From Nonlabens ponticola (GTDB taxonomy: Bacteria; Bacteroidota; Bacteroidia; Flavobacteriales; Flavobacteriaceae): DNA of 32,000 nucleotides. Location: positions 390,001 through 422,000 of the forward strand of contig NZ_CP034549.1 of the NCBI RefSeq assembly GCF_003966335.1. The letters run 5' to 3'. The translations under genes and the position numbers were made by a program. A model generated the notes under the pieces. That model was given only the letters and a program-made list of their open reading frames with translations. It did not search any database and was not told the origin of the DNA. Positions 13,169 to 26,427 of this stretch are shown here, piece by piece. Position 1 is the stretch's first letter; every line of letters starts with the position of its first letter.

Positions 13169-13325
13169 TTAAGCCGACTTCTCACTCAAATAATACCAGT
13201 AACGTTTCGGCACCTATTGTAGGTGCGGTTTCACTGTCTAGCTTTAGGCTATGTTGGTTCTCTGAAATTTTATTGACTCCTATGATCTTAATGGATGTTC
13301 TCGCTTTCGCGAAAGCGGAATTCCA
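13169..13325 (-). pseudogene. decayed duplicate of the 3'-terminal ~52 codons of the TIGR03915-family gene (compare 15869-16023)
   Basis: The segment 13181-13210 matches 15881-15910 at 28/30 positions. The TAA position is conserved (13169-13171 vs 15869-15871), both copies carry the palindrome (13302 vs 16000), and the offset is 2700 then 2698 bp. The copy at 13169-13325 has in-frame stops (e.g. ..ENIH* and ..HLQ*V..). Confidence 0.7.
13302..13317. repeat. palindrome copy 5, CGCTTTCGCGAAAGCG
   Basis: Exact 16-mer in the decayed gene-end duplicate; it is the paralogue of copy 6. Confidence 0.95.
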
Positions 13326-13480
13326 AACGATCTCACAGAGCTTCTACGGTATTTAGGAATAATTATTGATGCATTTAAAACTTTGTGCATCGGATTGCCT
13401 AACTTATTTTAAAAGAAGCATATTCCCTAGACTTGTAACTAAAGAATAAAGATTAAAAACACACTTTGTAAATCAAATTT

Positions 13481-15853
13481 ATGATTAGACTTTTACTCAC
13501 GTTTCTTTTTTTAATGTGTTTGGCTACAACTCTAGGGCAGGGCGAGGCAAACAATTGGTATTTTGGAGGTCAAGCTGGAATAACCTTTAATAATGGAGAT
13601 CCAATCGCGCTCACTGATGGTCAAATGTCAACTAATGAAGGTTGTTCAACAATTTCAGATCCAGATGGAAACCTTCTTTTTTATTCAGATGGGATTACTG
13701 TGTGGAATAAGGAACATGAGGTAATGGACAATGGCACATCACTATTGGGCGATCCTTCAAGTTCACAGTCAGGTGTAATAGTTCCAGTCCCAAAAAATCA
13801 AGATTTATATTACATTTTCACTATACCAGACGTAGGAGGTCCAGAGGGATTACGTTATTCAGTGATAGATTTGAGACTTGATGACGGCCTAGGTGGTGTG
13901 GTAAGCAATCAAAAGAATGTACTTCTTTATTCACCATCAACCGAAAAGATCACTGCGGTAAAACACCTTAACAATGTTGATGTCTGGATTATTACTCATG
14001 AATATAATTCAAACGTGTTTAGATGTCACCTAATGACTGAGGATGGCTTGTCTAATCAAGTAATAACAAATACTGTAGGTCACACTCCAACCACCGTAGA
14101 CTCTACCATTGGCAATATCAAAGCCTCATCTGACGGGCTGAGATTAGCAACTACCTATTATGTAGACCCAAGATCGAGCAATCGAGGGTTACTAGAGATT
14201 TTTGAATTTGACAATTTGAGTGGTGTTATCTATAATCCTATTTCAATTGGTCTTTCTGACCTAGATGAAACTGAAGAGCTTGTAAACAGCCCTTACGGAA
14301 TCGAATTCTCGCCTAATGGTCAATTTCTTTATATAGGTCAAACCGCAAGCGGCATAGACCAATATGATTTAAATGTTTTTGAAAAAACCTCAATAGTGGA
14401 ATCTCGTGTGAGATTGACAGGAACACCTAGATTTCCAGCCGGAAGCCTTATACCAACTTTAGGTCAATTACAATTAGGACCCGATAAAAAAATCTATGTT
14501 TCGGAAGTTAATAATGGTTTCTTAGGCGTTATCAATAATCCCAACTTGAAAGGCGTCGACGCTAATTTTGAACGTAATGGAGTTTTTCTTGGCGGCAATT
14601 TATCTAGATATGGTCTTCCTGCCTTCATTCAGTCCTTTTTTAGAGAGTCAAATATTAGTATAACAGGAGCCTGCTTAGGCACTGAAACATCGTTTGAGTT
14701 GAGATCCAGTAGATTTGTTAGGGATGTTATATGGGATTTTGGCGATGGGAACACCTCAACCGATCTAAAACCAACACATACTTATGATAGTATTGGTGAA
14801 TACACCGTAACTGTCACAGTTTTCCAGCTAGGAACAGAAGTATTTTCCACATCCACCATAGTAGACGTAAAAAATCCTCCTGTAGCATCATCGGCTAATA
14901 ATATGCAGCAATGTGCAAATACAGACGGAAGTCCGGTACCCTTTGATTTGAGTGAGAAAAAAGATCAAATCATTAATGATCAAGAAAATGAAAATTTGTC
15001 TGTTACTTATTATAGGGATCTAAACAGCGCTCAACAGGGCACGAATCCTCTAAATGACGATATTATTTTAACCTCTCAGGATGCATCAGTTTTTGCTAGA
15101 GTTGAAGATGATAATAATCTTGGGTGTTTTGATATTACCCAATTCGAGGTTCAAGTAATAGACATACAAGCTCCTGAAGTGCAGGAACAATATATATTTT
15201 GTAGAAGCACTGGACAGCTAGAAATATCGCTTAATTCAAACGCCGACCGTATAGAATGGTCTACAGGAGAGACGTCGCCCAATGTGATAATAACTGAACC
15301 TGGGTCGTATGGTGTCACGATATTTAAAGAATTTGAGTCCGTAATTTGTGAATCTTACAAAGATTTTGTGGTTCTAGAAAAACCGATCTCGATCAACGAG
15401 ATAGTAATAGATCAATTTGTTGAAGAAAATAATTCTGCTCAAGTTGTGATGTCAACCATTGATAATTATCAATATTCTCTGGACGGTATAAATTTTCAAT
15501 TATCTAGCACATTTGAAAATGTTGATCCTGGTACTTATGAAATCACGGTAGCTGATATAGATTTCTGTGGATTTGCACGTCAGAAAATTCAAATCGTTGA
15601 TTACCCTAGATTTTTCACGCCTAACAACGATGGCTATAATGACACATGGCATATAAAAAATATCATCTCTGATCCTGATGCCATTGTGATGATATTTGAT
15701 CGTTATGGTAAAATGCTCAAGGCACTAACTGCTCAAGATACTGGTTGGGATGGTACATTTAACGGTAACATCATGCCTTCATCAGATTATTGGTTTGAAC
15801 TTAGAATGACAGATGGCACCGTTGTTAAGAATCACTTCACCTTGAAACGGTAA
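13481..15853 (+). CDS. T9SS type-B sorting domain (gliding-motility C-terminal domain) surface protein with a PKD domain
   Basis: The signal peptide is followed by the NNWYFGGQAGITF start typical of this family. A PKD-like segment (WDFGDGNTSTDLKPTHTYDSIGEYTVTVTV) is present. The C-terminus is FFTPNNDGYNDTWHI...FDRYGKMLK...GWDGTFNG...SSDYWF. Confidence 0.85.
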   Translation: MIRLLLTFLFLMCLATTLGQGEANNWYFGGQAGITFNNGDPIALTDGQMSTNEGCSTISDPDGNLLFYSDGITVWNKEHEVMDNGTSLLGDPSSSQSGVIVPVPKNQDLYYIFTIPDVGGPEGLRYSVIDLRLDDGLGGVVSNQKNVLLYSPSTEKITAVKHLNNVDVWIITHEYNSNVFRCHLMTEDGLSNQVITNTVGHTPTTVDSTIGNIKASSDGLRLATTYYVDPRSSNRGLLEIFEFDNLSGVIYNPISIGLSDLDETEELVNSPYGIEFSPNGQFLYIGQTASGIDQYDLNVFEKTSIVESRVRLTGTPRFPAGSLIPTLGQLQLGPDKKIYVSEVNNGFLGVINNPNLKGVDANFERNGVFLGGNLSRYGLPAFIQSFFRESNISITGACLGTETSFELRSSRFVRDVIWDFGDGNTSTDLKPTHTYDSIGEYTVTVTVFQLGTEVFSTSTIVDVKNPPVASSANNMQQCANTDGSPVPFDLSEKKDQIINDQENENLSVTYYRDLNSAQQGTNPLNDDIILTSQDASVFARVEDDNNLGCFDITQFEVQVIDIQAPEVQEQYIFCRSTGQLEISLNSNADRIEWSTGETSPNVIITEPGSYGVTIFKEFESVICESYKDFVVLEKPISINEIVIDQFVEENNSAQVVMSTIDNYQYSLDGINFQLSSTFENVDPGTYEITVADIDFCGFARQKIQIVDYPRFFTPNNDGYNDTWHIKNIISDPDAIVMIFDRYGKMLKALTAQDTGWDGTFNGNIMPSSDYWFELRMTDGTVVKNHFTLKR

Positions 15854-15868
15854 GGCCTTTAATATAAA

Positions 15869-16657
15869 TTAGGCCACTTTCTCACTCAAATACTTCCAGT
15901 AACGTTTCGGTACATGTTGCAGGTGCAGTTTCATGTTTTTGCGCGATTCTATGTTAGTACTTTTAAAATACTGGTTCCAGAGATCGCGGTAATTGTTCTC
16001 GCTTTCGCGAAAGCGTGATTCCTCAACAACACCAGTATTCATAATACCTCGTTGCGCCCTAGGGTCATTAAATTGGATGGTGACCTCATCTACCTTTTCA
16101 AGATCATAGGAAATACCATAATCGCGATTCAAATCATAGATGATCCATTTCTGGTCTGCATAACGGTTTTTAAAGTGCTTTGAGATCAACGGCAGGACAT
16201 TGAAATCTGGCTCGCAGTTAGCATAATACACATCTTCCTCAATGAGATGAAATCGTATAAACGCTTCCATACGGTGCTTTTCCCGACCTACCATTTTGGC
16301 CGCTTGAGACATTTTCAATACGGTGATATTTCCATAATCGCCTGATGGTGAAGTTCCATTTTTAAAAGTGATGCGGCAGTAGTCCAATAACGTATTCTCG
16401 ATACCAGAAATCTCACTTAAAAATGCCCTGTAAAACTGGTTAAAATCATTGCTGCCGCACAATTTTTTCAGCTTTTTGAAAACACGATCTGCCTTATCTT
16501 GATCGGTGATGATAGTTTGCATTTCACCAAATAGCTGGTCCTGCGCCAGCGAGGTTTTTTGAATAATGGGATTTTTGAGTTTATGGGCATAAACATCAAA
16601 GACTGCCGTCAAGAACCCATTAAAGGAACCATCGTATTGTAATAATTCATTCATCAA
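15869..16657 (-). CDS. TIGR03915-family (DUF4130) putative DNA repair protein, without a fused uracil-DNA glycosylase domain
   Basis: The N-terminus ..YDGSFNGFLTAVFDVY.. is characteristic of the family. Its start overlaps the stop of the radical-SAM partner (ATGA at 16657..16654). Palindrome copy 6 is read here as RFRESE. Confidence 0.85.
   Translation of the reverse strand: MMNELLQYDGSFNGFLTAVFDVYAHKLKNPIIQKTSLAQDQLFGEMQTIITDQDKADRVFKKLKKLCGSNDFNQFYRAFLSEISGIENTLLDYCRITFKNGTSPSGDYGNITVLKMSQAAKMVGREKHRMEAFIRFHLIEEDVYYANCEPDFNVLPLISKHFKNRYADQKWIIYDLNRDYGISYDLEKVDEVTIQFNDPRAQRGIMNTGVVEESRFRESENNYRDLWNQYFKSTNIESRKNMKLHLQHVPKRYWKYLSEKVA
16000..16015. repeat. palindrome copy 6, CGCTTTCGCGAAAGCG
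   Basis: Exact 16-mer in the TIGR03915-family CDS, read as RFRES. Confidence 0.95.
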
Positions 16658-17919
16658 AACAGGCTTAATTGATTGGTGAAATTCTTACTATACTTGCTAG
16701 CTCCAGATAGTAGTATTTGATTTTTAATTTGTATACCAGTTAAATCGCGACGCTCAAATTCTCGTGAGTCACAGGTGATGAAGTATTTACCGCGGTTCAT
16801 GGATATACCTATCGCCTTAAGGTGTTCCCAGCCCAGTTTTCTATAGCGTCTAGCGCTTATGATTTTATGAACCGACTTCATGCCCACGCCAGGAATGCGC
16901 GCCAGCATGCGCTTATCTGCCTTATTGATATCCACAGGAAATTGATCTAGATTGCGCAACGCCCAGGATAACTTGGGATCAATATCCATGTCCAGATTTT
17001 GATGCTGATCGTTTAATATCTCGCGCACATCAAATCCATAAAAGCGCAGCAACCAGTCCGTTTGATATAATCTATTCTCTCGCATCATGGGAACCTCTGT
17101 ACCCAGCGCTGGTAATCGTGAATCATCTGCCACAGGAATATAGCCAGAATAGTACACGCGCTTCATGTTGAACTTGTTATAGAAAAAGTTGGCACTGTAC
17201 ATGACATCGCGATCACTCTCGCCAGTCGCGCCCACGATCATTTGGGTGCTTTGGCCTGCTGGTGCATATACTGGCGTGCTCTTGATGATCTTCTTTTCTG
17301 ACTTATAAAGATCGATAGAATTCTTTACCGCTTTCATGGGCTGGATAAAGTCCTTGTGATCCTTGTCTGGTGCCAGTAACTTAAGACCAGCCTTGGTAGG
17401 TATCTCTATATTCACTGATAATCTATCTGCATACAGTCCAGCCTCACGCATTAGCTCATCGCTAGCGCCAGGTATGGATTTAAGGTGAATGTAGCCGTTG
17501 AAATTTTCTTCCTCGCGCAGCTTTTTTGCAACACGCACCAGTCGCTCCATGGTAGCATCGGGACTTTTGAAAATTCCCGAACTCAAGAACAAGCCCTCTA
17601 TATAATTGCGACGGTAAAAGTTGATGGTGAGATCCACTACTTCTTGCACGGTAAAAGCAGCGCGCTTGATATCATTTGATTTGCGCGTCACGCAATAAGC
17701 ACAGTCAAAGATGCAAACATTAGTCAGCAGGATCTTGAGCAGCGATACACAGCGACCATCCTCAGTATAACTGTGACATATGCCCATGCCAGTGCTATCG
17801 CCCAGACCTTTATTCTTATTCTGTCGCTTGCTTCCGCTACTGCTGCAGCTCACGTCATACTTTGCCGCATCTGCCAGTATCTCTAGCTTCTCTTTTATTC
17901 TCTCGTGGTTCATATGCAT
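16654..17919 (-). CDS. TIGR03916-family putative DNA modification/repair radical SAM protein
   Basis: Motifs ..KLEILADAAKYDVSC.., the CX3CX2C cluster motif (CIFDCAYC) and FYRRNYIEGLFLSSG are present. A C-terminal helix-hairpin-helix is present (LARIPGVGMKSVHKIISARR). The start is set at the ATG at 17919, with 17913 as an alternative; the ORF-track extension to 17958 runs through a repeat hairpin. Confidence 0.88.
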   Translation of the reverse strand: MHMNHERIKEKLEILADAAKYDVSCSSSGSKRQNKNKGLGDSTGMGICHSYTEDGRCVSLLKILLTNVCIFDCAYCVTRKSNDIKRAAFTVQEVVDLTINFYRRNYIEGLFLSSGIFKSPDATMERLVRVAKKLREEENFNGYIHLKSIPGASDELMREAGLYADRLSVNIEIPTKAGLKLLAPDKDHKDFIQPMKAVKNSIDLYKSEKKIIKSTPVYAPAGQSTQMIVGATGESDRDVMYSANFFYNKFNMKRVYYSGYIPVADDSRLPALGTEVPMMRENRLYQTDWLLRFYGFDVREILNDQHQNLDMDIDPKLSWALRNLDQFPVDINKADKRMLARIPGVGMKSVHKIISARRYRKLGWEHLKAIGISMNRGKYFITCDSREFERRDLTGIQIKNQILLSGASKYSKNFTNQLSLF

Positions 17920-18067
17920 GCCCGCGCAGGCGGGAATCTTTTTATTACTATTCCGCACTTGATGCGGAATCTCATTTTAATTTGTCATGCCGTCGCAGGA
18001 CGGCATCTCTGAGTCACTCGTTAAGGTATCAGTCGGCTTCACTCGCCATACCGTCGCAGGACGGCAT
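17917..18067 (-). repeat. cluster of four short hairpin repeats in the dnaE2 / radical-SAM spacer
   Basis: On the minus strand these read AGAT-CCCGC-CTGC-GCGGG-CATG (17917-17939), ATTCCGCA/TGCGGAAT (17950-17970), ATGCCGTC-CTGC-GACGGCAT (17987-18006) and a near-identical copy (18048-18067). The 17987 copy with its flanks resembles 26286-26313. Confidence 0.6.
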
Positions 18068-18076
18068 CAGTCAACA

Positions 18077-21000
18077 CTATTTCCTAACCTTACCAGGTTT
18101 TCTACCAGCACCGCGCTGGTACACATCTACTTTTTCATGCGGCAGTTCTTGTCTTCTATAACCGTTGCCATTGCCCATGCGCCTATCCTTTAAACTAGCT
18201 TGTTTATCCAGTCGATGGATGGTTTGCGGATTATCCTCTGCATATCGTGGATCCTCGATATAGTCTGCTTTTTTCATGTCTTGCACCTCGATGGAACAAA
18301 AATCAAACTCTTCTACCACCTTGCCATAAACTGCATAGATACCGCTGCCGCGAAAGGTAATCCTAGCAGCCACAGGTGGAAACATCACGGTGTCAAAAAA
18401 GTGACCATCACGGTCTAGAAAAGTGCCAAATTGCATGCGCTTTCCCTTACCCGTATGAGTCGTTTTTATATTGACTACATAACCATAAATCAGGATATTT
18501 CTATTGAGATGATCCTTGAGATCCTTGCACGTATTGTTGTTTACCGGTGGCTTTACCAGTAGGTCAAAATGTGAGCACAATGGGAAACCCAATAGCTCAA
18601 TCTGTTCAAAGGCTAGTTCTTGCAACGTTGTAGTTAATTTGGGAATGCTCGCTTGTCTAAACTTGGGTACAAACAGCTGTTTTTGCAAGGCTTTTTTAGG
18701 TGTTTTATCCATTTTAAAATGTGCTTGCCACAACAATTCATACCGGTCAATACCTGTGAACCTAAATGCGTTGATACGTATCAACAAACTCATTTGATCA
18801 ATGCTAATACCTACTCTATTAATAAAATCTTCCAGCGATTTGAAATCACCATCATACCATCGTGCTTCTGTGATGAGTCTCATGGTGGTTTTTTCTAGCT
18901 CATTGATATAGCTGTAGCCCAGGTAGATGGTCTTGCCTTTAATGACATTGGCAATATCACTATTATTGACGCACGGCGCCTCGATGATCGCGCCGCACAT
19001 TCTAGCCTCATGCACATATAGTTCTGGCCTGTAAAAACCACCACCATTATTGAGTGTTGCAGTCATATATTCTAGCGGGAAATATCGTTTCAAGTACAGA
19101 CTCTGGTAACTTTCCACGGCGTAAGATGCACTGTGACCTTTCGCGAAAGCGTAACCCGCAAAACTCTTGATCTGATCCCATATTTCTTGAGCTTCTTCTT
19201 TTTTATAGCCCAGCTTGATGCAGTTTTGAAAATACTTCTGTTCCACGCGCTTGAACTCATCGCGCGAACGGTACTTACCGCTCATACCGCGACGCAGGAT
19301 GTCGGCCTCGGCAAGGTCTAGTTTTGCATAGTGGTGCGCCACCTTGATCACGTCTTCCTGATAGACCATGATGCCATAGGTCTCTGGCATGATCTCGTTG
19401 AGGATAGGATGCGCCTCGGCACGTTTTTCTGGGAATCGGGTGCGCAGGATAAACTCGCGCATCATACCACTTTGCGCCACACCAGGCCTGATCACGCTAC
19501 TCGCTGCGACCAGTCCTATATAATCGTTTGTAGCGAGCTTGCTCAACAGCATGCGCATGGCAGGCGACTCAATGTAAAAACAACCTATACAACCAGCGCG
19601 TGACAGCATGCGGTTGATGTTCTCATCTTTCATAAAAGACTTGACATCGCGGCGCACATCTGCCACCTGTGCGTTGGGCTGGTTTTCTTTGATCAGTTGT
19701 ATGGCATCGCGTATTTTTCCCAGACCGCGCTGTGCGAGTATATCAAACTTGTGGATTCCAGCATCCTCGGCAATGTGCATGTCAAACTGTACGGTCGCAT
19801 AACCTTTGGGCGGCAAGCTGGTAGCGCTGTAATAATGAATGGGACGCTCTGTAATGAGGATACCACCTGCGTGGATGCTGGTATAATTGGGCTTGTCTTT
19901 AATATGATGTGCATACTTGAGCACCAGTTGATGCATCTGGTCCAGTTGCTTGCCGTTCCAGTTTCCCGTTGAGAGCATGTCGATATCTGCTCGCGGTAAA
20001 CCGAATACCTTACCCAATTCCCTAATCACCGCGCGATATTGAAAGGTGACATAAGTGCCTTGCAAAGCAACGTTGTCAAATCTCTTGAAAATAAAGTCTG
20101 TCATGTCCTCGCGATCGTCCCATGAGAAGTCAAGGTCAAAATCTGGTGGGCTGGTACGGTAATCATTGATGAATCGCTCAAAATACAGATCGAGTTCTAT
20201 GGGATCGACCTCGGTTATTTGTAGCAGGTAAGCCAGGATACTATTAGCACCACTACCGCGGCCTACATAGAAATAGCCTTGGCTGCGAGCGTATTCACAT
20301 ATCTTCCAGTTGATTAGGAAATAGGCGACAAAGTTTTTGCGGGCAACCGTAGAAATTTCTTTCTCAATACGTTCTTTGATGTCTTTGTTAGAGGCTCCAT
20401 ACCGCACGGCAATACCTTGTTGCGCGAGCTCTTTAAGTAATTTGAAGTCGGCTTTTTGGTTTTCTTCTAGCGTGCCATCGCGATGGTAGGTTTTCTGGTT
20501 GGCATTGAGCTGTGACTTGTCATAATCAAAACTGATGCTGCATTGATCCAACAGCTTTTTTGTGTTTTCCAGAATAAAGGGATAATCCGCAAAAGCTTTT
20601 TCAAGATCATCTACTGGAATCATGGTGTCCTCAAGGCTGCCTTGCTGATTATCTGGTAATTGACTAAGCAAGATATTGAGATCGATGCATCGCAACAATC
20701 TGTGAGCATTGTAGTCTCGCTTGTTTCTAAAACTCGTGGTTTGCATCACGACGAGCTTGTCCTTGTAATTAATGTAGTCGGTAAACGGTAATTTACGTAG
20801 CGCTGCAATGGAGATTCCTATGTATTCGCTTTCGCGAAAGCGGTCTACCACACTACAACCAGTAGAACTTTTTTTATCCAATGCCATCACCGTGTTGAGC
20901 GGATAGATAACAAATGCATTGTCAAACGCTGGCGCCTCATCTGGTAATGGCGTCTTGTTATGCAAATGCCCTGATAAAAAGGCGTTGAGCTCCTGAAAAC

Positions 21001-21241
21001 CTGCATTGTTCCTTGCAATCCCAACGTACAGCTGTTGGTGCTCGTTACGGAAATCAATACCAATCACAGGTCGTTGTGGCATATCCTCTAACAATCTGAC
21101 AAAGTTGAGGCAGGCACTGGTGTTGTTGATGTCGGTAAGTACAATGGTTTCCACACCATTTTCCACAGCGAGATCGATGAGTTCTTGCTCACTGTAAGCA
21201 CCATAGCGCATGGAATAATATGTGTGGTTGTTTAAATACAC
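18077..21241 (-). CDS. dnaE2: error-prone DNA polymerase, DnaE2-like (second Pol III alpha-family paralogue)
   Basis: The PHP-domain N-terminus is MYLNNHTYYSMRYGAYSEQELIDLAVENGVETIVLTDIN, reached from an in-frame GTG at 21241. The Pol III alpha core includes GYAFAKGHSASYA, and an OB-fold-like region lies at the C-terminus. The 76 codons upstream in the ORF track translate tandem repeats. Palindrome copies 7 and 8 lie inside this gene. Confidence 0.88.
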   Translation of the reverse strand: MYLNNHTYYSMRYGAYSEQELIDLAVENGVETIVLTDINNTSACLNFVRLLEDMPQRPVIGIDFRNEHQQLYVGIARNNAGFQELNAFLSGHLHNKTPLPDEAPAFDNAFVIYPLNTVMALDKKSSTGCSVVDRFRESEYIGISIAALRKLPFTDYINYKDKLVVMQTTSFRNKRDYNAHRLLRCIDLNILLSQLPDNQQGSLEDTMIPVDDLEKAFADYPFILENTKKLLDQCSISFDYDKSQLNANQKTYHRDGTLEENQKADFKLLKELAQQGIAVRYGASNKDIKERIEKEISTVARKNFVAYFLINWKICEYARSQGYFYVGRGSGANSILAYLLQITEVDPIELDLYFERFINDYRTSPPDFDLDFSWDDREDMTDFIFKRFDNVALQGTYVTFQYRAVIRELGKVFGLPRADIDMLSTGNWNGKQLDQMHQLVLKYAHHIKDKPNYTSIHAGGILITERPIHYYSATSLPPKGYATVQFDMHIAEDAGIHKFDILAQRGLGKIRDAIQLIKENQPNAQVADVRRDVKSFMKDENINRMLSRAGCIGCFYIESPAMRMLLSKLATNDYIGLVAASSVIRPGVAQSGMMREFILRTRFPEKRAEAHPILNEIMPETYGIMVYQEDVIKVAHHYAKLDLAEADILRRGMSGKYRSRDEFKRVEQKYFQNCIKLGYKKEEAQEIWDQIKSFAGYAFAKGHSASYAVESYQSLYLKRYFPLEYMTATLNNGGGFYRPELYVHEARMCGAIIEAPCVNNSDIANVIKGKTIYLGYSYINELEKTTMRLITEARWYDGDFKSLEDFINRVGISIDQMSLLIRINAFRFTGIDRYELLWQAHFKMDKTPKKALQKQLFVPKFRQASIPKLTTTLQELAFEQIELLGFPLCSHFDLLVKPPVNNNTCKDLKDHLNRNILIYGYVVNIKTTHTGKGKRMQFGTFLDRDGHFFDTVMFPPVAARITFRGSGIYAVYGKVVEEFDFCSIEVQDMKKADYIEDPRYAEDNPQTIHRLDKQASLKDRRMGNGNGYRRQELPHEKVDVYQRGAGRKPGKVRK
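19138..19149. repeat. palindrome copy 7 (degenerate), cCTTTCGCGAAAGc
   Basis: It has a 12-bp perfect core and one mismatch to the 14-mer. It lies in the dnaE2 conserved motif GYAFAKGHSASYA. Confidence 0.8.
20827..20842. repeat. palindrome copy 8, CGCTTTCGCGAAAGCG
   Basis: Exact 16-mer in dnaE2, read as RFRES. Confidence 0.95.
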
Positions 21242-21322
21242 GAGCCTCTTTTTCCTCTGGACATTTCCCCAAAGGGAAAATTCATTTAAATTATTTTTTC
21301 TTTCTAATACTAGACCATCATT

Positions 21323-21346
21323 GTCACTTCGACTACGCTCAGTGAC
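21323..21346 (-). repeat. hairpin carrying the GAGCGTAGTCGA motif (shared with 26214-26233)
   Basis: The minus strand reads GTCACT-GAGCGTAGTCGA-AGTGAC. The identical 12-mer occurs at 26218-26229 on the plus strand. In both places the motif has the same orientation relative to local transcription. Confidence 0.55.
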
Positions 21347-21361
21347 CTCAAGAGAAAATTT

Positions 21362-21421
21362 CAAATCCCAAGTTCCAAGTTCCAAATCCCAAATCCCAAA
21401 TCTCAAATCCCAAACCTCAAC
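21362..21421 (-). repeat. heptamer tandem array, (GGATTTG)n-like, ~8.5 units
   Basis: The plus strand reads CAAATCC CAAGTTC CAAGTTC CAAATCC CAAATCC CAAATCT CAAATCC CAAACCT CAAC. Confidence 0.85.
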
Positions 21422-21472
21422 TAAACCTGAGGACTGAGGCACTCGAAGTCCGACTTTATAAAATCCCAAACC

Positions 21473-21541
21473 GTCAACTATTAACTATTAACTGATGCCA
21501 TCAACTGTCAACTGACAACTATTAACTGTTAACTAATAACT
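21473..21541 (-). repeat. heptamer tandem array, (AGTTNNN)n, ~10 units, starting 3 nt after the Y-family polymerase stop
   Basis: The plus strand reads GTCAACT ATTAACT ATTAACT GATGCCATCAACT GTCAACT GACAACT ATTAACT GTTAACT AATAACT. Confidence 0.85.
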
Positions 21542-21544
21542 GTA

Positions 21545-22762
21545 TCACTGCTTCCTATGTGCCAGCACTACTGGCGGTAAACCGTTAAACGGATTAATCA
21601 TTCTTCCTATAGTTCTCGCACCTAATCCTGATGCGCGTACTACCGCTCGATCGCCGTATTTCTCACGTACGTTGTCAAGTGCGTTATATAAATTAAGTGC
21701 CGTTTCTGTATCGTCAAACAGGTTGATTTGATAATTACCCGTTACCAGATGCGAGAAACGTATGCCTATCAATCGCACCAGCAGCCTGCGGTTATAAAGT
21801 CGCTCAAAAATCTCTAATATTTTGGGGATCAAGATGTGATCTGCGCTGCAATACGGTATCCGCATTTGTTTTGAATACGTATTAAAGTCAGAATACTTGA
21901 TCTTGACATTGATACAAGCCGTGAGTTTATCACCACGTCGCAACTGATAGGCAAGATTCTCTGTCATGGCGATGAGTATGGATTTGAGTTTCTTGACATC
22001 AATGGTGTCCTTGTCAAAGGTGCGCTCTGTACTTATGGACTTGCGCTCGTTGAAGGCAATCACTGGTCTGTTGTCCACGCCTTGCGCGCGACGCCATATC
22101 AAACTACCGTTCTTACCTAATACTTTGATAAGCATTTCTTCCTGCATTTCCTGCAACGTCTTTATACGCTTGACGCCCAAGTGCCGCAAGGTCTGATAGG
22201 TCTTATCGCCTACTTGTGGTATTTTTTTGATCGACAACGGTGCCATGAATTGTTTCTCAAAGCCATTGTCGATCATAAGCTGATTGTTAGGCTTTGCCTC
22301 ACCCGTGGCAATTTTTGAAACCACCTTATTGACTGACAAGCCAAAGGAAATAGGTAAACCAGTTTCCTTAATGATCTTGCGACGTATTTCTGTAGCGATC
22401 TTATAGCAATCATAAAACCGATCCATGCCTGTCATGTCTGCATAGAACTCATCGATACTAGACTTTTCAAACAACGGTGTTTCTTGTTTGATGATTTCAG
22501 TCACTTCATCAGAATGTTTTGAGTACGTGCCCGCATTGCCTCTTATGACGATGGCCTCTGGACACAGCTGGCGTGCAAGTTTCATGGACATACCACTATG
22601 CACACCATAACCACGCGTCTCATAACTACACGCCGCTACGACACCACGATCACTGGTACCGCCTACCAGTAGTGGCTTGTACTGTAGTCTAGAGTCGATC
22701 TTGCGCTCTACAGACACATAAAATGTATCCAGATCCATGTGCATGATATGCCTGTCGTTCAT
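21545..22762 (-). CDS. dinB: Y-family DNA polymerase (DinB / Pol IV-like), catalytic residues present
   Basis: Motifs MHMDLDTFYVSVE (catalytic Asp motif), SIDEFYADMT (D-E motif) and the little-finger region are present. The ORF is 405 aa. Confidence 0.9.
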   Translation of the reverse strand: MNDRHIMHMDLDTFYVSVERKIDSRLQYKPLLVGGTSDRGVVAACSYETRGYGVHSGMSMKLARQLCPEAIVIRGNAGTYSKHSDEVTEIIKQETPLFEKSSIDEFYADMTGMDRFYDCYKIATEIRRKIIKETGLPISFGLSVNKVVSKIATGEAKPNNQLMIDNGFEKQFMAPLSIKKIPQVGDKTYQTLRHLGVKRIKTLQEMQEEMLIKVLGKNGSLIWRRAQGVDNRPVIAFNERKSISTERTFDKDTIDVKKLKSILIAMTENLAYQLRRGDKLTACINVKIKYSDFNTYSKQMRIPYCSADHILIPKILEIFERLYNRRLLVRLIGIRFSHLVTGNYQINLFDDTETALNLYNALDNVREKYGDRAVVRASGLGARTIGRMINPFNGLPPVVLAHRKQ

Positions 22763-22783: not shown

Positions 22784-22815
22784 GCTAAAAAACCTCACTT
22801 ATTACAGTGAGGTTT
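22784..22815 (-). terminator. terminator-like hairpin in the 5' leader of the polymerase operon (possible attenuator)
   Basis: The minus strand reads AAACCTCACT-GTAATA-AGTGAGGTTT followed by TTTAGCC. That is a 7-10 bp stem running into a 6-T run, 20-50 nt upstream of the ATG at 22762. No minus-strand gene lies upstream of it that it could terminate. Confidence 0.4.
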
Positions 22816-22837
22816 CTGGCAATCAACTAGTATATAA

Positions 22838-22850
22838 ATGGAAATATTCC
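22838..22850. promoter_or_regulatory. operator-like box 1, ATGGAAATATTCC
   Basis: One of three copies of ATGGAAnTATTCC (a GGAA-N3-TTCC inverted repeat). Its centre is at 22845. Confidence 0.45.
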
Positions 22851-22873
22851 TAGCTATTTGTATTATTTCATTT

Positions 22874-22881
22874 CAAAAGTA
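22874..22881 (-). promoter_or_regulatory. candidate -7 box TACTTTTG for the polymerase operon
   Basis: The minus strand matches the Bacteroidota TAnnTTTG consensus, and its TA is the last two bases of operator-like box 2. I found no clear -33 TTG. Confidence 0.3.
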
Positions 22882-22896
22882 TGGAACTATTCCATA
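22880..22896. promoter_or_regulatory. operator-like box 2, perfect 7-3-7 palindrome TATGGAA-CTA-TTCCATA
   Basis: This is the best-formed of the three boxes. Its centre is at 22888, exactly 43 bp from boxes 1 and 3. Confidence 0.5.
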
Positions 22897-22923
22897 TTAA
22901 TCGAGTAGATAATTGTTAAAATG

Positions 22924-22936
22924 ATGGAATTATTCC
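22924..22936. promoter_or_regulatory. operator-like box 3, ATGGAATTATTCC
   Basis: The core GGAATTATTCC is a perfect 11-bp palindrome. Its centre is at 22931. Confidence 0.45.
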
Positions 22937-22986: not shown

Positions 22987-23006
22987 TTTTTAGCCTTGAC
23001 TAAAAA
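22987..23006. promoter_or_regulatory. candidate DtxR/MntR-type operator, TTTTTAGCCTTGACTAAAAA
   Basis: This is an imperfect 20-bp palindrome with 8 of 10 arm positions paired. The TTAG...CTAA arms recall the DtxR-family box arms. It lies 41 bp upstream of the mntR ATG. Confidence 0.3.
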
Positions 23007-23046
23007 TAAGTTTACCTACACCCAATTAATGTTTTACCTTTGCCGT

Positions 23047-23703
23047 ATGCATTCAGTATCAGAAGAGAATTACATCAAGGCCATCCATCACTTACAGCAA
23101 GGTGATGACCTTGTTTCTACAAATGAGATTGCTGCGCGCATGAATACCAGAGCATCATCAGTAACTGATATGCTCAAGAAACTGGCCGATAAAAATCTAG
23201 CGGAATATATTCCCTATAAAGGATCGCGACTCACACAAATGGGAACCGATTGTGCTACCAGCATCATCAGGAAACACCGTTTGTGGGAAGTATTCCTGGT
23301 AGAGAAACTCAATTTCTCATGGGATGAAGTCCATGAGGTAGCAGAGCAGCTAGAACATATCCAATCTCGCAAACTTATCGACGAGCTGGACAAACACTTG
23401 GGTTACCCTAGAAAAGATCCACACGGCGATCCTATTCCTGATAAGGACGGTAACTACGAGAAAACACAACAGGCACCACTATCCATAGTCGATGTAGGCA
23501 CACACGTTGCCATCACTGGCGTGGTGGACACCTCAAAAGAGTTCTTGAATTATCTGGACAAACACAACATCCAGCTAGGCACCCAGCTAAAAGTTCTAGA
23601 TAAAGAAGATTTTGATGGATCAGTAACCGTCGAGACACCTCATAAAACGCTACAGCTATCGCGTCAAATAGCCGACAACCTATTTATAAAAGAACAACCA
23701 TGA
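23047..23703 (+). CDS. mntR: DtxR/MntR-family metal-dependent transcriptional regulator
   Basis: The ATG at 23047 gives MHSVSEENYIKAIHHL.., a typical DtxR-family N-terminus. Motifs HRLWEVFLVEKL and DPHGDPIP and a C-terminal FeoA/SH3-like domain are present. The ORF-track TTG extension was rejected. Confidence 0.85.
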   Translation: MHSVSEENYIKAIHHLQQGDDLVSTNEIAARMNTRASSVTDMLKKLADKNLAEYIPYKGSRLTQMGTDCATSIIRKHRLWEVFLVEKLNFSWDEVHEVAEQLEHIQSRKLIDELDKHLGYPRKDPHGDPIPDKDGNYEKTQQAPLSIVDVGTHVAITGVVDTSKEFLNYLDKHNIQLGTQLKVLDKEDFDGSVTVETPHKTLQLSRQIADNLFIKEQP

Positions 23704-24482
23704 AAAAAATCATATACCTCTCAGCATTACTTATTTCTCTGCAACTGGTTGCGCAACAGGAACAAATAAATCCAGACGGCGCGCTCGTCACAGATAGACC
23801 CGACGCTACAGAATCGCCCAGCGTAGTACGACCTGGTTATCTGCAAATTGAAACTGGTGGTTTCTATACTGAAAATGAAGAAAACGGCACCACCATAAAG
23901 GAAACTACTTACAACACGACCCTACTGCGCTATGGCGTAATGAAAAATGTAGAACTGCGATTGGGACTGGATTATCGCAACACTCAGTTTGGGTCTAGCG
24001 ACAATGATCTCAATGGCTTATCACCCTTATTGCTAGGTGCCAAAATAGGTATCGCACAAGAAGACGGCTGGAAACCACAGATGGCACTGCTAGGACATTT
24101 GACCCTACCATATACTGCCAGCAGTGACTATGACCCAGAGGCTACTGGCATGGACTTTAGATTTGCATTCAACCACACATTGTCAGACAGGTCAGGTATT
24201 GCCTACAATCTGGGCGCACGATTAGACGCTGGCAATCCAGAACTTGCTTATTTATATACCGTTGCCTACGGCTACAGCTTGACAAATACCATAGGTGCCT
24301 ATGTAGAGCTATACGGTGATTTCCCTACAGACTCTAGCGCAAATCATTTATGGGACGCAGGTTTCACCTATCTCGCAAACAACGATTTACAATTTGATGT
24401 GACCGTAGGCTCGGGTATCACAGATGGACAAGACATCTTGCTCAGCGCTGGATTGAGTTACCGCATTAGAAAAAAGCAGTAG
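23700..24482 (+). CDS. outer-membrane beta-barrel 'transporter' (MetA-pathway/PF13557-like)
   Basis: A signal peptide (MKKIIYLSALLISLQLVAQQ) is followed by the TDRPDATESP motif typical of that family. The body shows alternating strand patterns and ends ..LSYRIRKKQ. Its start overlaps the mntR stop (ATGA). Confidence 0.7.
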   Translation: MKKIIYLSALLISLQLVAQQEQINPDGALVTDRPDATESPSVVRPGYLQIETGGFYTENEENGTTIKETTYNTTLLRYGVMKNVELRLGLDYRNTQFGSSDNDLNGLSPLLLGAKIGIAQEDGWKPQMALLGHLTLPYTASSDYDPEATGMDFRFAFNHTLSDRSGIAYNLGARLDAGNPELAYLYTVAYGYSLTNTIGAYVELYGDFPTDSSANHLWDAGFTYLANNDLQFDVTVGSGITDGQDILLSAGLSYRIRKKQ

Positions 24483-24498
24483 AGATGATACTGGTTAC

Positions 24499-24512
24499 GC
24501 TTTCGCGAAAGC
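24499..24512. repeat. palindrome copy 9, GCTTTCGCGAAAGC
   Basis: Exact 14-mer in the 53-bp spacer between the OM-barrel gene and the substrate-binding protein gene. Confidence 0.95.
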
Positions 24513-24535
24513 AAAAAACACAACAACACCTCAAC

Positions 24536-25444
24536 ATGAAAAAACTATCCTATTTATTATGTGCCTTACTGCTAGTGGGCTGCAAGGATGCCAGCCAAGA
24601 TAACGGCAAACTCAACGTCGTCACCACTACCACCATGATTACAGACATGGTGGGCGCAATAGGTGGCGATGCGATCAACCTACAAGGCCTTATGGGTAGT
24701 GGCGTGGATCCGCATTTGTACAAGCCTAGTGAAGGTGACGTGTCAAAACTGCAAGATGCAGACGTGATTTTTTACAACGGCTTGCATCTAGAAGGTAAGC
24801 TAGTAGATATTTTTGAAAAGATGGAAGCGCGCGATAAAAACGCCATTGCGGTGAGCGATGCCATTGATAAAAGCACGCTTATAGGCAGTGAGTATTTTGC
24901 GAGTAATTATGATCCACACGTTTGGTTTGATACCGATTACTGGATTTCTATGTCCCGACTAGTTGCTCAAGAACTCACCGCTGCAGATCCTGAGAACAAG
25001 GAAACCTATGAGCAGAATCTCGCTAATTACATATCGTCCATTGAAGAACTAGCAGTAGAATTGAAACAAATCATTGACGATTTACCTGCCGAAAAACGCA
25101 TCCTGGTAACCGCACATGATGCCTTTAATTACTACGGGCGCAAATTTGGTTTTGAGGTAGTAGGATTGCAAGGATTATCTACCGCGACGGAGGCTGGCGT
25201 GCAAGATGTTCAAAACATCACACAATTTATTATCGAGAATGATATCAAGGCCGTTTTTGTAGAAAGCAGCGTGCCTAGAAGAACAGTAGAAGCATTGCAA
25301 GCAGCGGTACGAGCACAAGATCGCGAAGTAGAAATAGGTGGCGAACTGTATAGTGATGCTTTAGGCAGCGCTGGCACAGCAGAAGGTACTTATGTAGGTA
25401 TGTACAAGCATAATGTCAACACTATCGTCAACGCACTCAAATAA
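24536..25444 (+). CDS. metal (Mn/Zn) ABC transporter substrate-binding lipoprotein, TroA/ZnuA/PsaA cluster
   Basis: The ATG at 24536 gives [16 protein letters not shown], which contains a lipobox. Metal-ligand contexts [15 protein letters not shown] and AHDAFNYY are present. Confidence 0.9.
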
Positions 25445-26181
25445 TGGAACAGAAAATCGCCGTTGCCGTAGATGACTTGACCGTAGCTTACAACTATAAG
25501 CCTGTCTTGTGGGATATTGACCTGTCGATTCCTGAAGGTGTACTTATGGCTATCGTTGGCCCAAATGGCGCTGGAAAATCAACCTTGATCAAATCTATTC
25601 TTGGGATCATAGATCCTATTGCTGGATCTGTAAAGATCTATGACAAGCCTTATGCCAAGCAGCGTGACAAGGTCGCCTACGTACCACAAAAGGGTAGCGT
25701 GGATTGGGATTTCCCGACTACCGCTCTCGATGTCGTCATGATGGGAACTTACGGTTCATTAGGCTGGATCAAACGACCAGGTTCCAAAGAGAAAAAAGCA
25801 GCCCTTGAGGCACTTGAAAAAGTAGGTATGCTAGCCTTCAAAAGCAGGCAGATAAGTCAACTGTCTGGTGGACAGCAGCAACGTATATTCCTAGCAAGAG
25901 CGTTGGTACAAAATGCAGCGATCTATTTTATGGATGAACCTTTTCAAGGTGTTGACGCCACCACAGAGATTGCCATCATCAATATCCTAAAAGAACTGCG
26001 CAAGGCAGGAAAAACGGTGATCGTGGTACATCACGATTTACAAACCGTACCAGAATATTTTGATTGGGTCACCTTTTTAAATGTGAAGCACATCGCGACT
26101 GGACCTGTCAAGGATATTTTTAATGACGACAATTTGACCAAAACCTATGGTATCAATTATAAAGTTGCAGTGCAGCAGTAG
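25444..26181 (+). CDS. metal ABC transporter ATP-binding protein
   Basis: Walker [10 protein letters not shown], the signature LSGGQQQR and Walker B IYFMDEP are present. The start overlaps the upstream stop (TAATG). Confidence 0.93.
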
Positions 26182-26182
26182 G

Positions 26183-26207
26183 TAGTTAGTAGTTAGTAGT
26201 TAGTAAA
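26183..26207 (+). repeat. heptamer tandem array (GTAGTTA)x3.5, starting 2 nt after the ATPase stop
   Basis: The sequence reads GTAGTTA GTAGTTA GTAGTTA GTAA. It has the same AGTTNNN phase family as the array at 21473-21541 and the same position relative to a stop codon. Confidence 0.8.
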
Positions 26208-26213
26208 ATGCTT

Positions 26214-26233
26214 GCTCGAGCGTAGTCGAGAGC
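26214..26233 (+). repeat. hairpin carrying GAGCGTAGTCGA (family shared with 21323-21346)
   Basis: The sequence is GCTCGAGCGTAGTCGAGAGC, and its CTCGA and TCGAG arms can pair. Confidence 0.55.
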
Positions 26234-26285
26234 TACTGGTAATTGAAAACTTGATTGCTTTCAACGAGCTATTAAGAGATTTAAA

Positions 26286-26313
26286 AGAGATTCCGCCCTG
26301 CGGCGAAATGACA
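26286..26313 (+). repeat. CTGC-loop hairpin repeat (family shared with 17917-18067)
   Basis: AGAGATTCCGCCCTGCGGCGAAATGACA closely resembles the minus-strand sequence AGAGATGCCGTCCTGCGACGGCATGACA at 17983-18010. Confidence 0.6.
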
Positions 26314-26427
26314 TATAAAACTTTGGCGTCTGCCTGCTAGACAAATGACAAACAGGAAAGCGTTTTGAATACATTATTACGGGAATCAAAAGTTGATTTT
26401 GATTTTATTTTTGAATTTAATTTTTAA

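Follow-up and report, generated by a model that had tools for sequence, protein, structure and literature searches.

In the genome of Nonlabens ponticola (Flavobacteriaceae; RefSeq assembly GCF_003966335.1, contig NZ_CP034549.1), we analysed a minus-strand set of four genes within a stretch of 32,000 nucleotides (nt; contig positions 390,001 to 422,000), which is called the window here and is numbered from its first letter. In transcriptional order the genes encode a Y-family polymerase (dinB), a DnaE2-like C-family polymerase, a radical S-adenosylmethionine (SAM) protein of family TIGR03916 and a TIGR03915/DUF4130 protein. With a probability of about 0.7, we read them as one SOS operon under three LexA operators, formed by the fusion of two modules, in which the radical-SAM/DUF4130 pair would be a single lesion-processing enzyme recruited to the sliding clamp. 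The four-gene set at 22762-15869, proposed in an initial annotation of the same DNA, was borne out with all open reading frames (ORFs) at their predicted coordinates. The same holds for the lack of an opposite-strand interruption: antisense ORFs within the set comprise only 81-99 amino acids (aa) and none is supported. The functional link between the two modules, which had been called an untested inference, is real and already published as shared membership of the SOS regulon: both were placed in one LexA regulon, including this very promoter (PMC8565304), and an earlier study had pointed the same way (PMC3765255).

The 234-bp intergenic region between dinB and a divergent mntR-like gene contains three exact GGAATAnTTCC boxes (at 22926, 22883 and 22840), which are 43 bp apart and lie within 97 bp; this box count, allowing up to one mismatch, was reached in 0 of 100 shuffles. 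Sanchez-Osuna et al. 2021 (PMC8565304) described GGA-N5-TCC as the operator of a non-canonical Bacteroidetes LexA, consisting of a CI-like helix-turn-helix and an S24 peptidase domain. They showed LexA binding and its dependence on dyad and spacer length by electrophoretic mobility shift assays and mutagenesis for other species and promoters, found regulon genes to be induced by mitomycin C in other Flavobacteriaceae, and assigned both the dinB-dnaE operon and the COG1573-COG4277 pair (uracil-DNA glycosylase (UDG)/radical SAM) to the Bacteroidetes LexA regulon. The 17-mer of operator 2 (TATGGAATAGTTCCATA) is identical to a site in their Table S5 belonging to the 'DNA polymerase IV' gene EJ995_RS01700 of Nonlabens sp. 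MJ115, and operator 3 has the 17-mer (CTAGGAATATTTCCATT) of their other MJ115 site, at an unchanged distance of 43 bp. By these identities the window almost certainly comes from MJ115 or a strain nearly identical to it. The promoter in the window is an already published predicted LexA target. One further GGA-N5-TCC sequence, at 23286-23296, lies within the mntR-like coding region and was treated as a probable chance occurrence.

Promoters of Bacteroidetes have a -7 box with the consensus TAnnTTTG. This motif occurs a single time, as TACTTTTG, on the minus strand of the 7.2 kb between 15800 and 23050, and Nonlabens lexA-SRAP promoters have TATATTTG or TACTTTTG at the equivalent position between their boxes, which is consistent with a promoter function of this element. 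A sigma-70 promoter scan was uninformative for this Bacteroidetes genome, as its matches corresponded to the shuffle expectation.

To place the set in context, we compared 80 species-level loci with a radical-SAM gene (the 80 best matches, all at least 77% identical; numbered L001 onward), of which 74 had enough upstream DNA to be informative. The resulting linkage frequencies apply to Flavobacteriaceae and close allies only, and the background density of boxes in the surveyed loci was 0.28 per kb. Linkage to dnaE and dinB, for which the initial annotation had proposed such a survey, recurs in 16/74 loci in colinear and in 2/74 in rearranged form. The assumed co-occurrence of TIGR03915 and TIGR03916 was upheld as well, with both genes adjacent in 78 of the 80 loci (the other two contigs end too early) and in five loci of other phyla. 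The 16 colinear dnaE-radical-SAM-DUF4130 arrangements belong to Nonlabens and allies, Gillisia and Antarcticibacterium; dinB is upstream in the same orientation, except for three loci with an inverted dinB. In the two rearranged loci, from Cytophagales (L050, L054), dinB-dnaE is divergent from the pair, and their common spacer carries a box of the CTAA-N5-TTAG type, which is recognised by the second group of Bacteroidetes LexA proteins.

Elsewhere the pair stands alone. A non-canonical lexA gene is divergent from it within 450 bp in 28/74 loci, usually with three boxes at about -75, -52 and -33; these loci fall in L013-L078 (e.g., L013 9037-9798 and 9995 onward). Another 12/74 loci have one or two boxes and no divergent lexA, so that 40/74 stand-alone pairs in total carry one to four boxes, and 16/74 are without boxes. 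In many Flavobacteriaceae, the pair thus recurs next to the LexA repressor gene. None of the 16 colinear loci has a box within ~120 bp upstream of the radical-SAM start; their boxes are found upstream of the first gene of the cluster, wherever that gene is on the contig. In Gillisia (L032), lexA is divergent and three boxes are directly followed by the four genes. Because most stand-alone pairs carry boxes and all 16 fused loci lack them before the radical-SAM gene, two LexA-controlled modules appear to have been fused, and the fused pair, having no operators of its own, would therefore be transcribed from the upstream promoter. The simplest reading of these arrangements is a lineage-specific operon fusion of two SOS modules within a known regulon.

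The closest relatives show a fuller version of the cluster. In N. agnitus (L081), Nonlabens sp. YIK11 and eight other loci, a divergent lexA is followed by four boxes, a SRAP peptidase gene, an ORF of ~100 aa, a hairpin, dinB, dnaE and the radical-SAM and DUF4130 genes. Positions 22839-22936 of the window align to the N. agnitus lexA-SRAP promoter (L081 4194-4098), including the 43-bp box spacing, and operator 1 is the homologue of the first box there. The site in the window is without lexA, SRAP gene and small ORF, and both flanks differ from the N. agnitus-type cluster; the absence of lexA and the SRAP gene would be explained by Table S5 of PMC8565304, which places them ~56 kb away in MJ115 (lexA, EJ995_RS01455). 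The small ORF between SRAP gene and hairpin is conserved at ~90-105 aa in these Nonlabens SOS clusters (L005 5050-5373, L001 4483-4785, L081 5041-5313), has no Pfam match and is absent from the window.

Outside the Bacteroidetes, layouts were available for a small sample only (Geobacter, Tissierella, Thermincola and candidate phylum WOR-1). The pair stands alone in the first three. The WOR-1 locus (L086 5080-9898) contains a canonical lexA, an 83-aa ORF, a DUF72 gene, a Y-family polymerase, the radical-SAM gene (overlapping by 14 nt) and DUF4130, without a DnaE2; DUF72 is another uncharacterised family within this SOS operon. From the layouts in Flavobacteriaceae, Cytophagales and WOR-1 it follows that the joining of polymerase and pair under LexA arose independently at least three times. 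The coupling that the initial annotation had taken as a sign of a combined lesion-bypass and processing system is thus non-accidental. The combined machine itself found less support, since the pair is mostly a stand-alone LexA-controlled operon in relatives; what the fusion supports is therefore common regulation, and it need not mean that the proteins work as one biochemical machine.

Both polymerases look active, to judge from their intact catalytic residues. The dinB product (405 aa, no extra domain) consists of the Pfam domains IMS and IMS_C and reaches 285.7 bits with the NCBIfam model NF002677 'DNA polymerase IV' (cut-off 256). Its alignment to PDB entry 7yll places the catalytic D-x-D (MHMDLD, D10) and SIDEF (D103/E104) motifs. 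Because these residues are intact, the Y-family protein is DinB-like and not an ImuB; no ImuB-C extension was found on it, and the promoter and the convergent gene at 15853 enclose just the four genes of the set, none of which encodes a RecA-like ImuA. The imuA-imuB-dnaE2 cassette, invoked initially as the template for this locus, was therefore rejected on four grounds: no imuA, no ImuB-C, retained Y-family catalytic residues and the Pol IV score.

The DnaE-like protein comprises PHP, DNA_pol3_alpha, finger and HHH_6 domains (superfamily model TIGR00594, 458.7 vs a cut-off of 434). PDFDLD and KFD align to the positions of D401, D403 and D555 in Escherichia coli Pol III alpha. For the initial label 'DnaE2-like', the architecture agrees and the family cut-off does not: NF004225 'error-prone DNA polymerase' scores 423.7 vs a cut-off of 939, in one stretch covering positions 196-1027 of 1047, and the DnaE1 model NF004226 scores 479.7 vs a cut-off of 1002, in three stretches. 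The mechanical ORF extends to 21469 across low-complexity repeats; we placed the start at the GTG at 21241 because homology with relatives begins there. The DinB motifs QINLF, DLD and SIDEF and the DnaE catalytic motifs are kept in the orthologues of 15 related loci, and so is a QxxLF at a conserved position of the DnaE homologue. In an uncultured Flavobacteriaceae metagenome-assembled genome (L025 6850-9992), the dnaE2-like gene is split over three reading frames, as either a pseudogene or a sequencing artefact, and dinB and the radical-SAM pair are intact.

The two remaining genes lie far above their profile cut-offs: the radical-SAM protein scores 671.3 bits with TIGR03916 (cut-off 343.5) and has Radical_SAM and HHH_3 domains (Pfam), and its partner scores 272.6 with TIGR03915 (cut-off 112.25). 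Homologues nearest to the radical-SAM protein come from Nonlabens, with N. agnitus at 95% identity, and the family counts 859 cluster representatives at E<=1e-30. CX3CX2C (C69, C73, C76) is invariant in 60 sequences. A profile built from them matches the ComEA-type helix-hairpin-helix (HhH) DNA-binding domain (E = 1e-7); its matches to the region of HydE, HydG and ThiH that binds the cluster are weak. The AlphaFold2 (AF2) model (mean predicted local distance difference test score, pLDDT, 83.8; predicted TM score, pTM, 0.82) has its nearest solved folds, according to Foldseek, in HydE, biotin synthase (BioB), MqnE, HydG, lipoyl synthase (LIAS), viperin, PFL-AE, MiaB and ThiH. For the 262-aa DUF4130 protein, the only Pfam match is DUF4130 and no UDG domain was found; a PDB sequence search gave only marginal dGTPase-like matches (E ~0.02).

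The two genes do not meet in an 'ATGA' overlap, as had been annotated; the minus-strand junction reads TTT-TGA-TGA-ATG, and the radical-SAM stop TGA (16656-16654) overlaps a possible start codon, by one base if this is the ATG at 16654 and by four (TTGA) if it is the TTG at 16657. Such an arrangement suggests that DUF4130 is translationally coupled to the radical-SAM gene. Further, a natural fusion of both proteins exists: in P0125 (666 aa), residues 415-652 align to the whole DUF4130 protein of the window (E = 3e-26). By their length, P0124 (729 aa), P0126 (669 aa) and P0127 (582 aa) look like fusions of the same kind; the alignment was made for P0125 only. A recent preprint (10.64898/2026.08.19.745780) reported a heterodimer of the radical-SAM and DUF4130 proteins at strict confidence with AlphaFold3 (AF3) and likened DUF4130 to a DHH/DHHA1 nucleotide-binding module that has decayed, is not catalytic and lies next to a narrow channel for a single strand. 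Natural fusions and the reported heterodimer together argue that the two genes encode one enzyme. In the literature, Aravind et al. 2013 (PMC3765255) included DUF4130, radical SAM and UDG in an SOS gene-neighbourhood network, the pair is reported to belong to LexA regulons of Alphaproteobacteria and Verrucomicrobia (cited in PMC8565304), and in Acinetobacter it has been assigned to the DdaA regulon.

The radical-SAM protein ends in ...FTNQLSLF. Pentapeptides of the type QL[SD]LF are the consensus for binding to the beta sliding clamp. Among close full-length homologues, 118 of 119 have Q[LMIV]x[LMIV]F within 15 residues of the C-terminus, compared with 0 of 3116 control windows elsewhere in the same proteins. 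In a set of 49 representatives clustered at 50% identity, Q[LMIV]x[LMIV][FW] follows the HhH in 14 (controls 1/881), and most motif-free representatives are without any tail. The motif is again common in Firmicutes, Geobacter, Chloroflexi and candidate phyla, where it follows the HhH in 100 of 118 sequences (controls 0/2228). In the AF2 model, the last 12 residues (410-421) have a pLDDT below 50 and are disordered. A literature search found no paper that joins a clamp-type motif with radical-SAM enzymes, and the QLSLF tail of the TIGR03916 family looks like a new lead. This conservation suggests that the clamp may recruit the radical-SAM enzyme at stalled primer termini.

Between promoter and dinB, the leader can form a hairpin (stem arms AACCTCACT and AGTGAGGTT) with a predicted RNA fold of -25.1 kcal/mol (z = -4.3). 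The terminator scan missed it, as its stem takes in part of the T run; it was read by hand and then folded. The outer stem and tail, ACCTCAC...GTG(A/G)GGTTTTTTGACC, are kept ahead of dinB in 10 related loci of the Nonlabens clade, with variable inner stem and loop. Those loci are L001, L003, L005-L007, L012, L017, L025, L081 and L082, in which the outer stem and tail ACCTCAC...GTGAGGTTTTTTGACC is invariant. The window keeps this hairpin although the upstream genes that it would terminate are gone. As the distance to the ATG is too short for a promoter, dinB would be reachable only by read-through. The hairpin may act as a leaky terminator or an attenuator that tempers the expression of mutagenic genes.

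According to motif and terminator scans, both internal spacers are free of LexA boxes, of TAnnTTTG and of terminator-like sites on the minus strand. The dnaE-radical-SAM spacer contains two copies of GCCGTC-CTGC-GACGG besides ATTCCGCA..TGCGGAAT and CCCGCCTGCGCGGG; all of these hairpins lack a T run after them on the minus strand. The repeats and hairpins of both spacers resemble an unrelated intergenic region at 26182-26427. Such intergenic padding, made of TGGGATT heptamers, CAGTTAATAGTT-like and GTAGTTA repeats and GC-rich hairpins such as GCCGTCGCAGGACGGC, was seen at 21356-21419, 21469-21537, 17977-18068 and 26182-26300, and a 29-bp stretch of it (26206-26234) is 96% identical to part of the N. 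agnitus dinB-dnaE spacer (L081 6646-6674). In orthologous loci the spacers can be far shorter, with 12-37 bp between dinB and dnaE (L005, L006, L007, L017, L025, L032) and 3-40 bp between dnaE and the radical-SAM gene (L006, L008, L010, L018, L023, L025, L032). Most likely the four genes constitute one damage-inducible unit; from promoter, spacers and relatives we infer both their co-transcription and LexA binding in the N. ponticola strain.

These observations can be combined into the following scheme. A Bacteroidetes-type promoter (-7 box TACTTTTG, 22881-22874), bracketed by the three GGA-N5-TCC operators, would be bound by non-canonical LexA. DNA damage would remove LexA and allow one transcript through the leader hairpin into the dinB, dnaE2-like, radical-SAM and DUF4130 genes. 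The operon itself may have originated when an active PolY2 + DnaE2 lesion-bypass pair was joined with the radical-SAM/DUF4130 pair; both modules appear to be separately LexA-controlled in related genomes, the latter mostly alone behind two or three operators in Flavobacteriaceae, and on fusion the pair would have lost its own operators and come to depend on the dinB promoter. Within the damaged cell, the two polymerases would bypass lesions. Radical-SAM and DUF4130 proteins would form one enzyme binding DNA via the ComEA-type HhH domain, the disordered QLSLF tail could dock this enzyme on the beta sliding clamp where primer termini have stalled, and 5'-deoxyadenosyl radical chemistry there could process or reverse a replication-blocking lesion. 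The specific proposal that TIGR03916/DUF4130 is a beta-clamp-tethered, SOS-induced radical-SAM enzyme, whose conserved QLxL[FW] tail recruits it to stalled primer termini beside DinB/DnaE2 and which processes or reverses a replication-blocking lesion in the single-stranded template, is tentative, and we give it clearly less than an even chance.

Several points weigh against this scheme. None of the results indicates a substrate or lesion. QLxLF could serve another partner, and ~15% of homologues have no motif of this type. The pair is alone in 56/74 loci, so that a biochemical dependence on the polymerases need not be assumed. A terminator-like hairpin with a T run between promoter and dinB could stop much of the transcription, and the repeats and hairpins in the long internal spacers (303 and 157 bp) could hide promoters or processing sites. 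Finally, tblastn found no non-canonical lexA in the 32-kb window, and its placement ~56 kb off is a listing for MJ115, with the window equated to that strain.

The hairpins and spacers raise the question of separate transcripts, in which spacer promoters or termination in the leader would split the polymerases from the pair and the pair would have escaped LexA control in this genome. The unusual length of the spacers here, their hairpins and repeats, the terminator-like structure ahead of dinB and the poor prediction of Bacteroidetes promoters by the scan used would all fit. We nevertheless consider this unlikely: the scanned spacers have neither TAnnTTTG nor LexA box nor minus-strand terminator-like site, their content is the generic repeat material also seen at 26182-26427, orthologous spacers shrink to 3-40 bp, and with the hairpin ~25 nt from its ATG dinB needs read-through in any case. 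That all 16 fused loci are without the boxes of stand-alone pairs is expected if the upstream promoter controls them. If the four genes are one unit, the pair might be a physical accessory of a DinB-DnaE2 mutasome, for instance in place of ImuA/ImuB-C, yielding a four-protein machine for lesion bypass plus processing. Colinear or divergent neighbours in three independent lineages, clamp-binding-type motifs on all three enzymes and the lack of ImuA and ImuB-C from the Bacteroidetes PolY2-DnaE2 system point in this direction. However, the many loci with the pair alone mostly have LexA boxes of their own, Geobacter, Tissierella and Thermincola have it alone too, the WOR-1 pair follows a Y-family polymerase without any DnaE2, and shared regulation accounts for the linkage without a complex. 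We regard such a machine as quite improbable.

Other alternatives concern the chemistry of the pair. It could be a nucleic-acid modification enzyme comparable to RlmN or MiaB, methylating or thiolating DNA or RNA, with SOS control serving, for example, the marking of DNA or phage defence; MiaB is among the structural neighbours, and the NCBI family name reads 'DNA modification/repair'. Control by three unrelated damage regulators (non-canonical LexA, canonical LexA and DdaA), the pairing with lexA in 28 loci, a DNA-binding HhH domain of ComEA type together with the clamp-type tail, and the association of DUF4130 with uracil-DNA glycosylases in other lineages speak for repair instead, and a Pfam search detected no methyltransferase or sulfur-insertion auxiliary domain, which makes modification a rather unlikely role. 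Spore photoproduct lyase (SPL) is, to our knowledge, the only characterised radical-SAM DNA repair enzyme and was cited as the precedent in the initial annotation, so that the protein might be an SplB-like enzyme for direct reversal of UV thymine dimers; Aravind et al. (PMC3765255) named the DUF4130-associated enzymes 'SplB-like radical SAM photolyases'. That precedent gained no specific support, as neither the single sequence nor the 60-sequence profile matched SPL in PDB at E<=1, and SPL is absent from the top 50 Foldseek neighbours and from the NCBIfam matches. A separate SplB-type gene (COG1533, 'PA0069 family radical SAM') is a distinct member of the same regulon (PMC8565304), and the obligate DUF4130 partner has no SPL counterpart. 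Membership of the SplB family was rejected, there being no SPL sequence or fold similarity beyond the generic radical-SAM core, and a role as thymine-dimer lyase is highly improbable.

Table 1 Features of the four-gene set and its control region (window coordinates)
Feature	Coordinates	Strand	Description
Predicted LexA operator 1	22926..22936	.	GGAATAATTCC, perfect palindrome, GGA-N5-TCC type, exact match
Predicted LexA operator 2	22883..22893	.	GGAATAGTTCC, exact match
Putative Bacteroidetes-type -7 box	22874..22881	-	TACTTTTG, consensus TAnnTTTG, abuts operator 2
Predicted LexA operator 3	22840..22850	.	GGAATATTTCC, exact match, 43 bp from operator 2
5'-leader hairpin	22787..22817	-	AACCTCACT-GTAATA-AGTGAGGTT then T run, ~25 nt ahead of dinB ATG
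dinB	21545..22762	-	Y-family polymerase, Pol IV type, QINLF clamp-binding-type motif at residues 345-349
dinB-dnaE spacer	21242..21544	-	303 bp, short tandem repeats: CAGTTAATAGTT-like and TGGGATT heptamers
DnaE2-like C-family polymerase	18077..21241	-	GTG start, 1054 aa, PDFDLD/KFD motifs, degenerate PHP N-terminus, QKQLF at residue 853
dnaE-radical-SAM spacer	17920..18076	-	157 bp, four GC-rich hairpins
TIGR03916 radical-SAM protein	16654..17919	-	CIFDCAYC (CX3CX2C), C-terminal ComEA-type HhH, disordered tail
QLSLF codons, radical-SAM C-terminus	16657..16671	-	last five residues (...FTNQLSLF)
TIGR03915/DUF4130 protein	15869..16657	-	262 aa, gene overlaps radical-SAM gene

The surroundings of the set have features of their own. 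The LexA boxes lie in an intergenic region which dinB has in common with a divergent operon (22996-26181) encoding a DtxR/MntR-type metal repressor with FeoA domain, an outer-membrane MetA-like protein, a ZnuA-type binding protein and an ABC ATPase. Downstream, a decayed duplicate of the DUF4130 3' end is located at 13169-13339 on the minus strand, exactly 2700 bp beyond the end of the true gene; it is 75% identical to 15869-16037 and contains stops and frameshifts (...VPKRYWYYLSEKSA*). Between the two, on the opposite strand, is a gene for a 790-aa PKD/CHU_C protein (type IX secretion; 13481-15853). From the remnant onward, the region is again syntenic with N. antarcticus and N. agnitus; therefore, either ~2.7 kb were inserted or the cluster was replaced by recombination. 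An Rfam search over the window returned two tRNAs only, with no match in leader or spacers.

The locus is no new kind of system. The pair is widespread and damage-regulated under at least three unrelated regulators, and the comparative series of stand-alone pairs with operators, pairs divergent from lexA and fused pairs without operators marks it as a core SOS function in Flavobacteriaceae, tied to the repressor. That it was joined to Y-family polymerases several times independently suggests that it acts at the stalled replication fork, and a clamp tether would fit its repeated association with translesion polymerases. If true, this would be the first radical-SAM member of the clamp 'tool-belt', treating lesions that the polymerases otherwise bypass. 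Nonlabens and related bacteria can be grown in culture, and some of them are open to genetic manipulation, which makes the operon an experimental entry point to the chemistry of the pair.

Among known systems, SplB has in common with the TIGR03916 protein the radical-SAM superfamily and a presumed DNA substrate; it differs in that the latter depends on a DUF4130 partner and carries an HhH domain as well as a clamp-type tail. Within the TIGR03916/TIGR03915 (COG4277/DUF4130) family, the pair in the window is typical with regard to hidden Markov model scores far over the cut-offs, adjacent overlapping genes, CX3CX2C and HhH, but it has no family-4 UDG domain, which is frequent and not obligatory elsewhere, and it is embedded in a polymerase operon. 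The imuA-imuB-dnaE2 cassette resembles the set in the LexA-controlled coupling of a Y-family homologue with a DnaE paralogue, whereas the DnaE paralogue here falls under the NCBIfam cut-off for error-prone polymerases. The regulon of PMC8565304 has the same operator in multiple copies, in Flavobacteriaceae, and includes dinB with a COG0587 polymerase as well as the COG1573-COG4277 pair; the radical-SAM/UDG-type genes form a separate 'two-gene operon' there, in contrast to their position behind dinB-dnaE and without own operators in N. ponticola. Timinskas & Venclovas 2019 (PMC6511836) described a mutasome variant, 'Bacteroidetes PolY2 + DnaE2', that unusually pairs two apparently active polymerases and has no ImuA or ImuB-C; they named the Bacteroidetes orthologues DnaE2. 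The operon in the window represents this variant, exemplified there by Cellulophaga algicola, with the addition of the radical-SAM and DUF4130 genes ('radical SAM' has 0 occurrences in PMC6511836).

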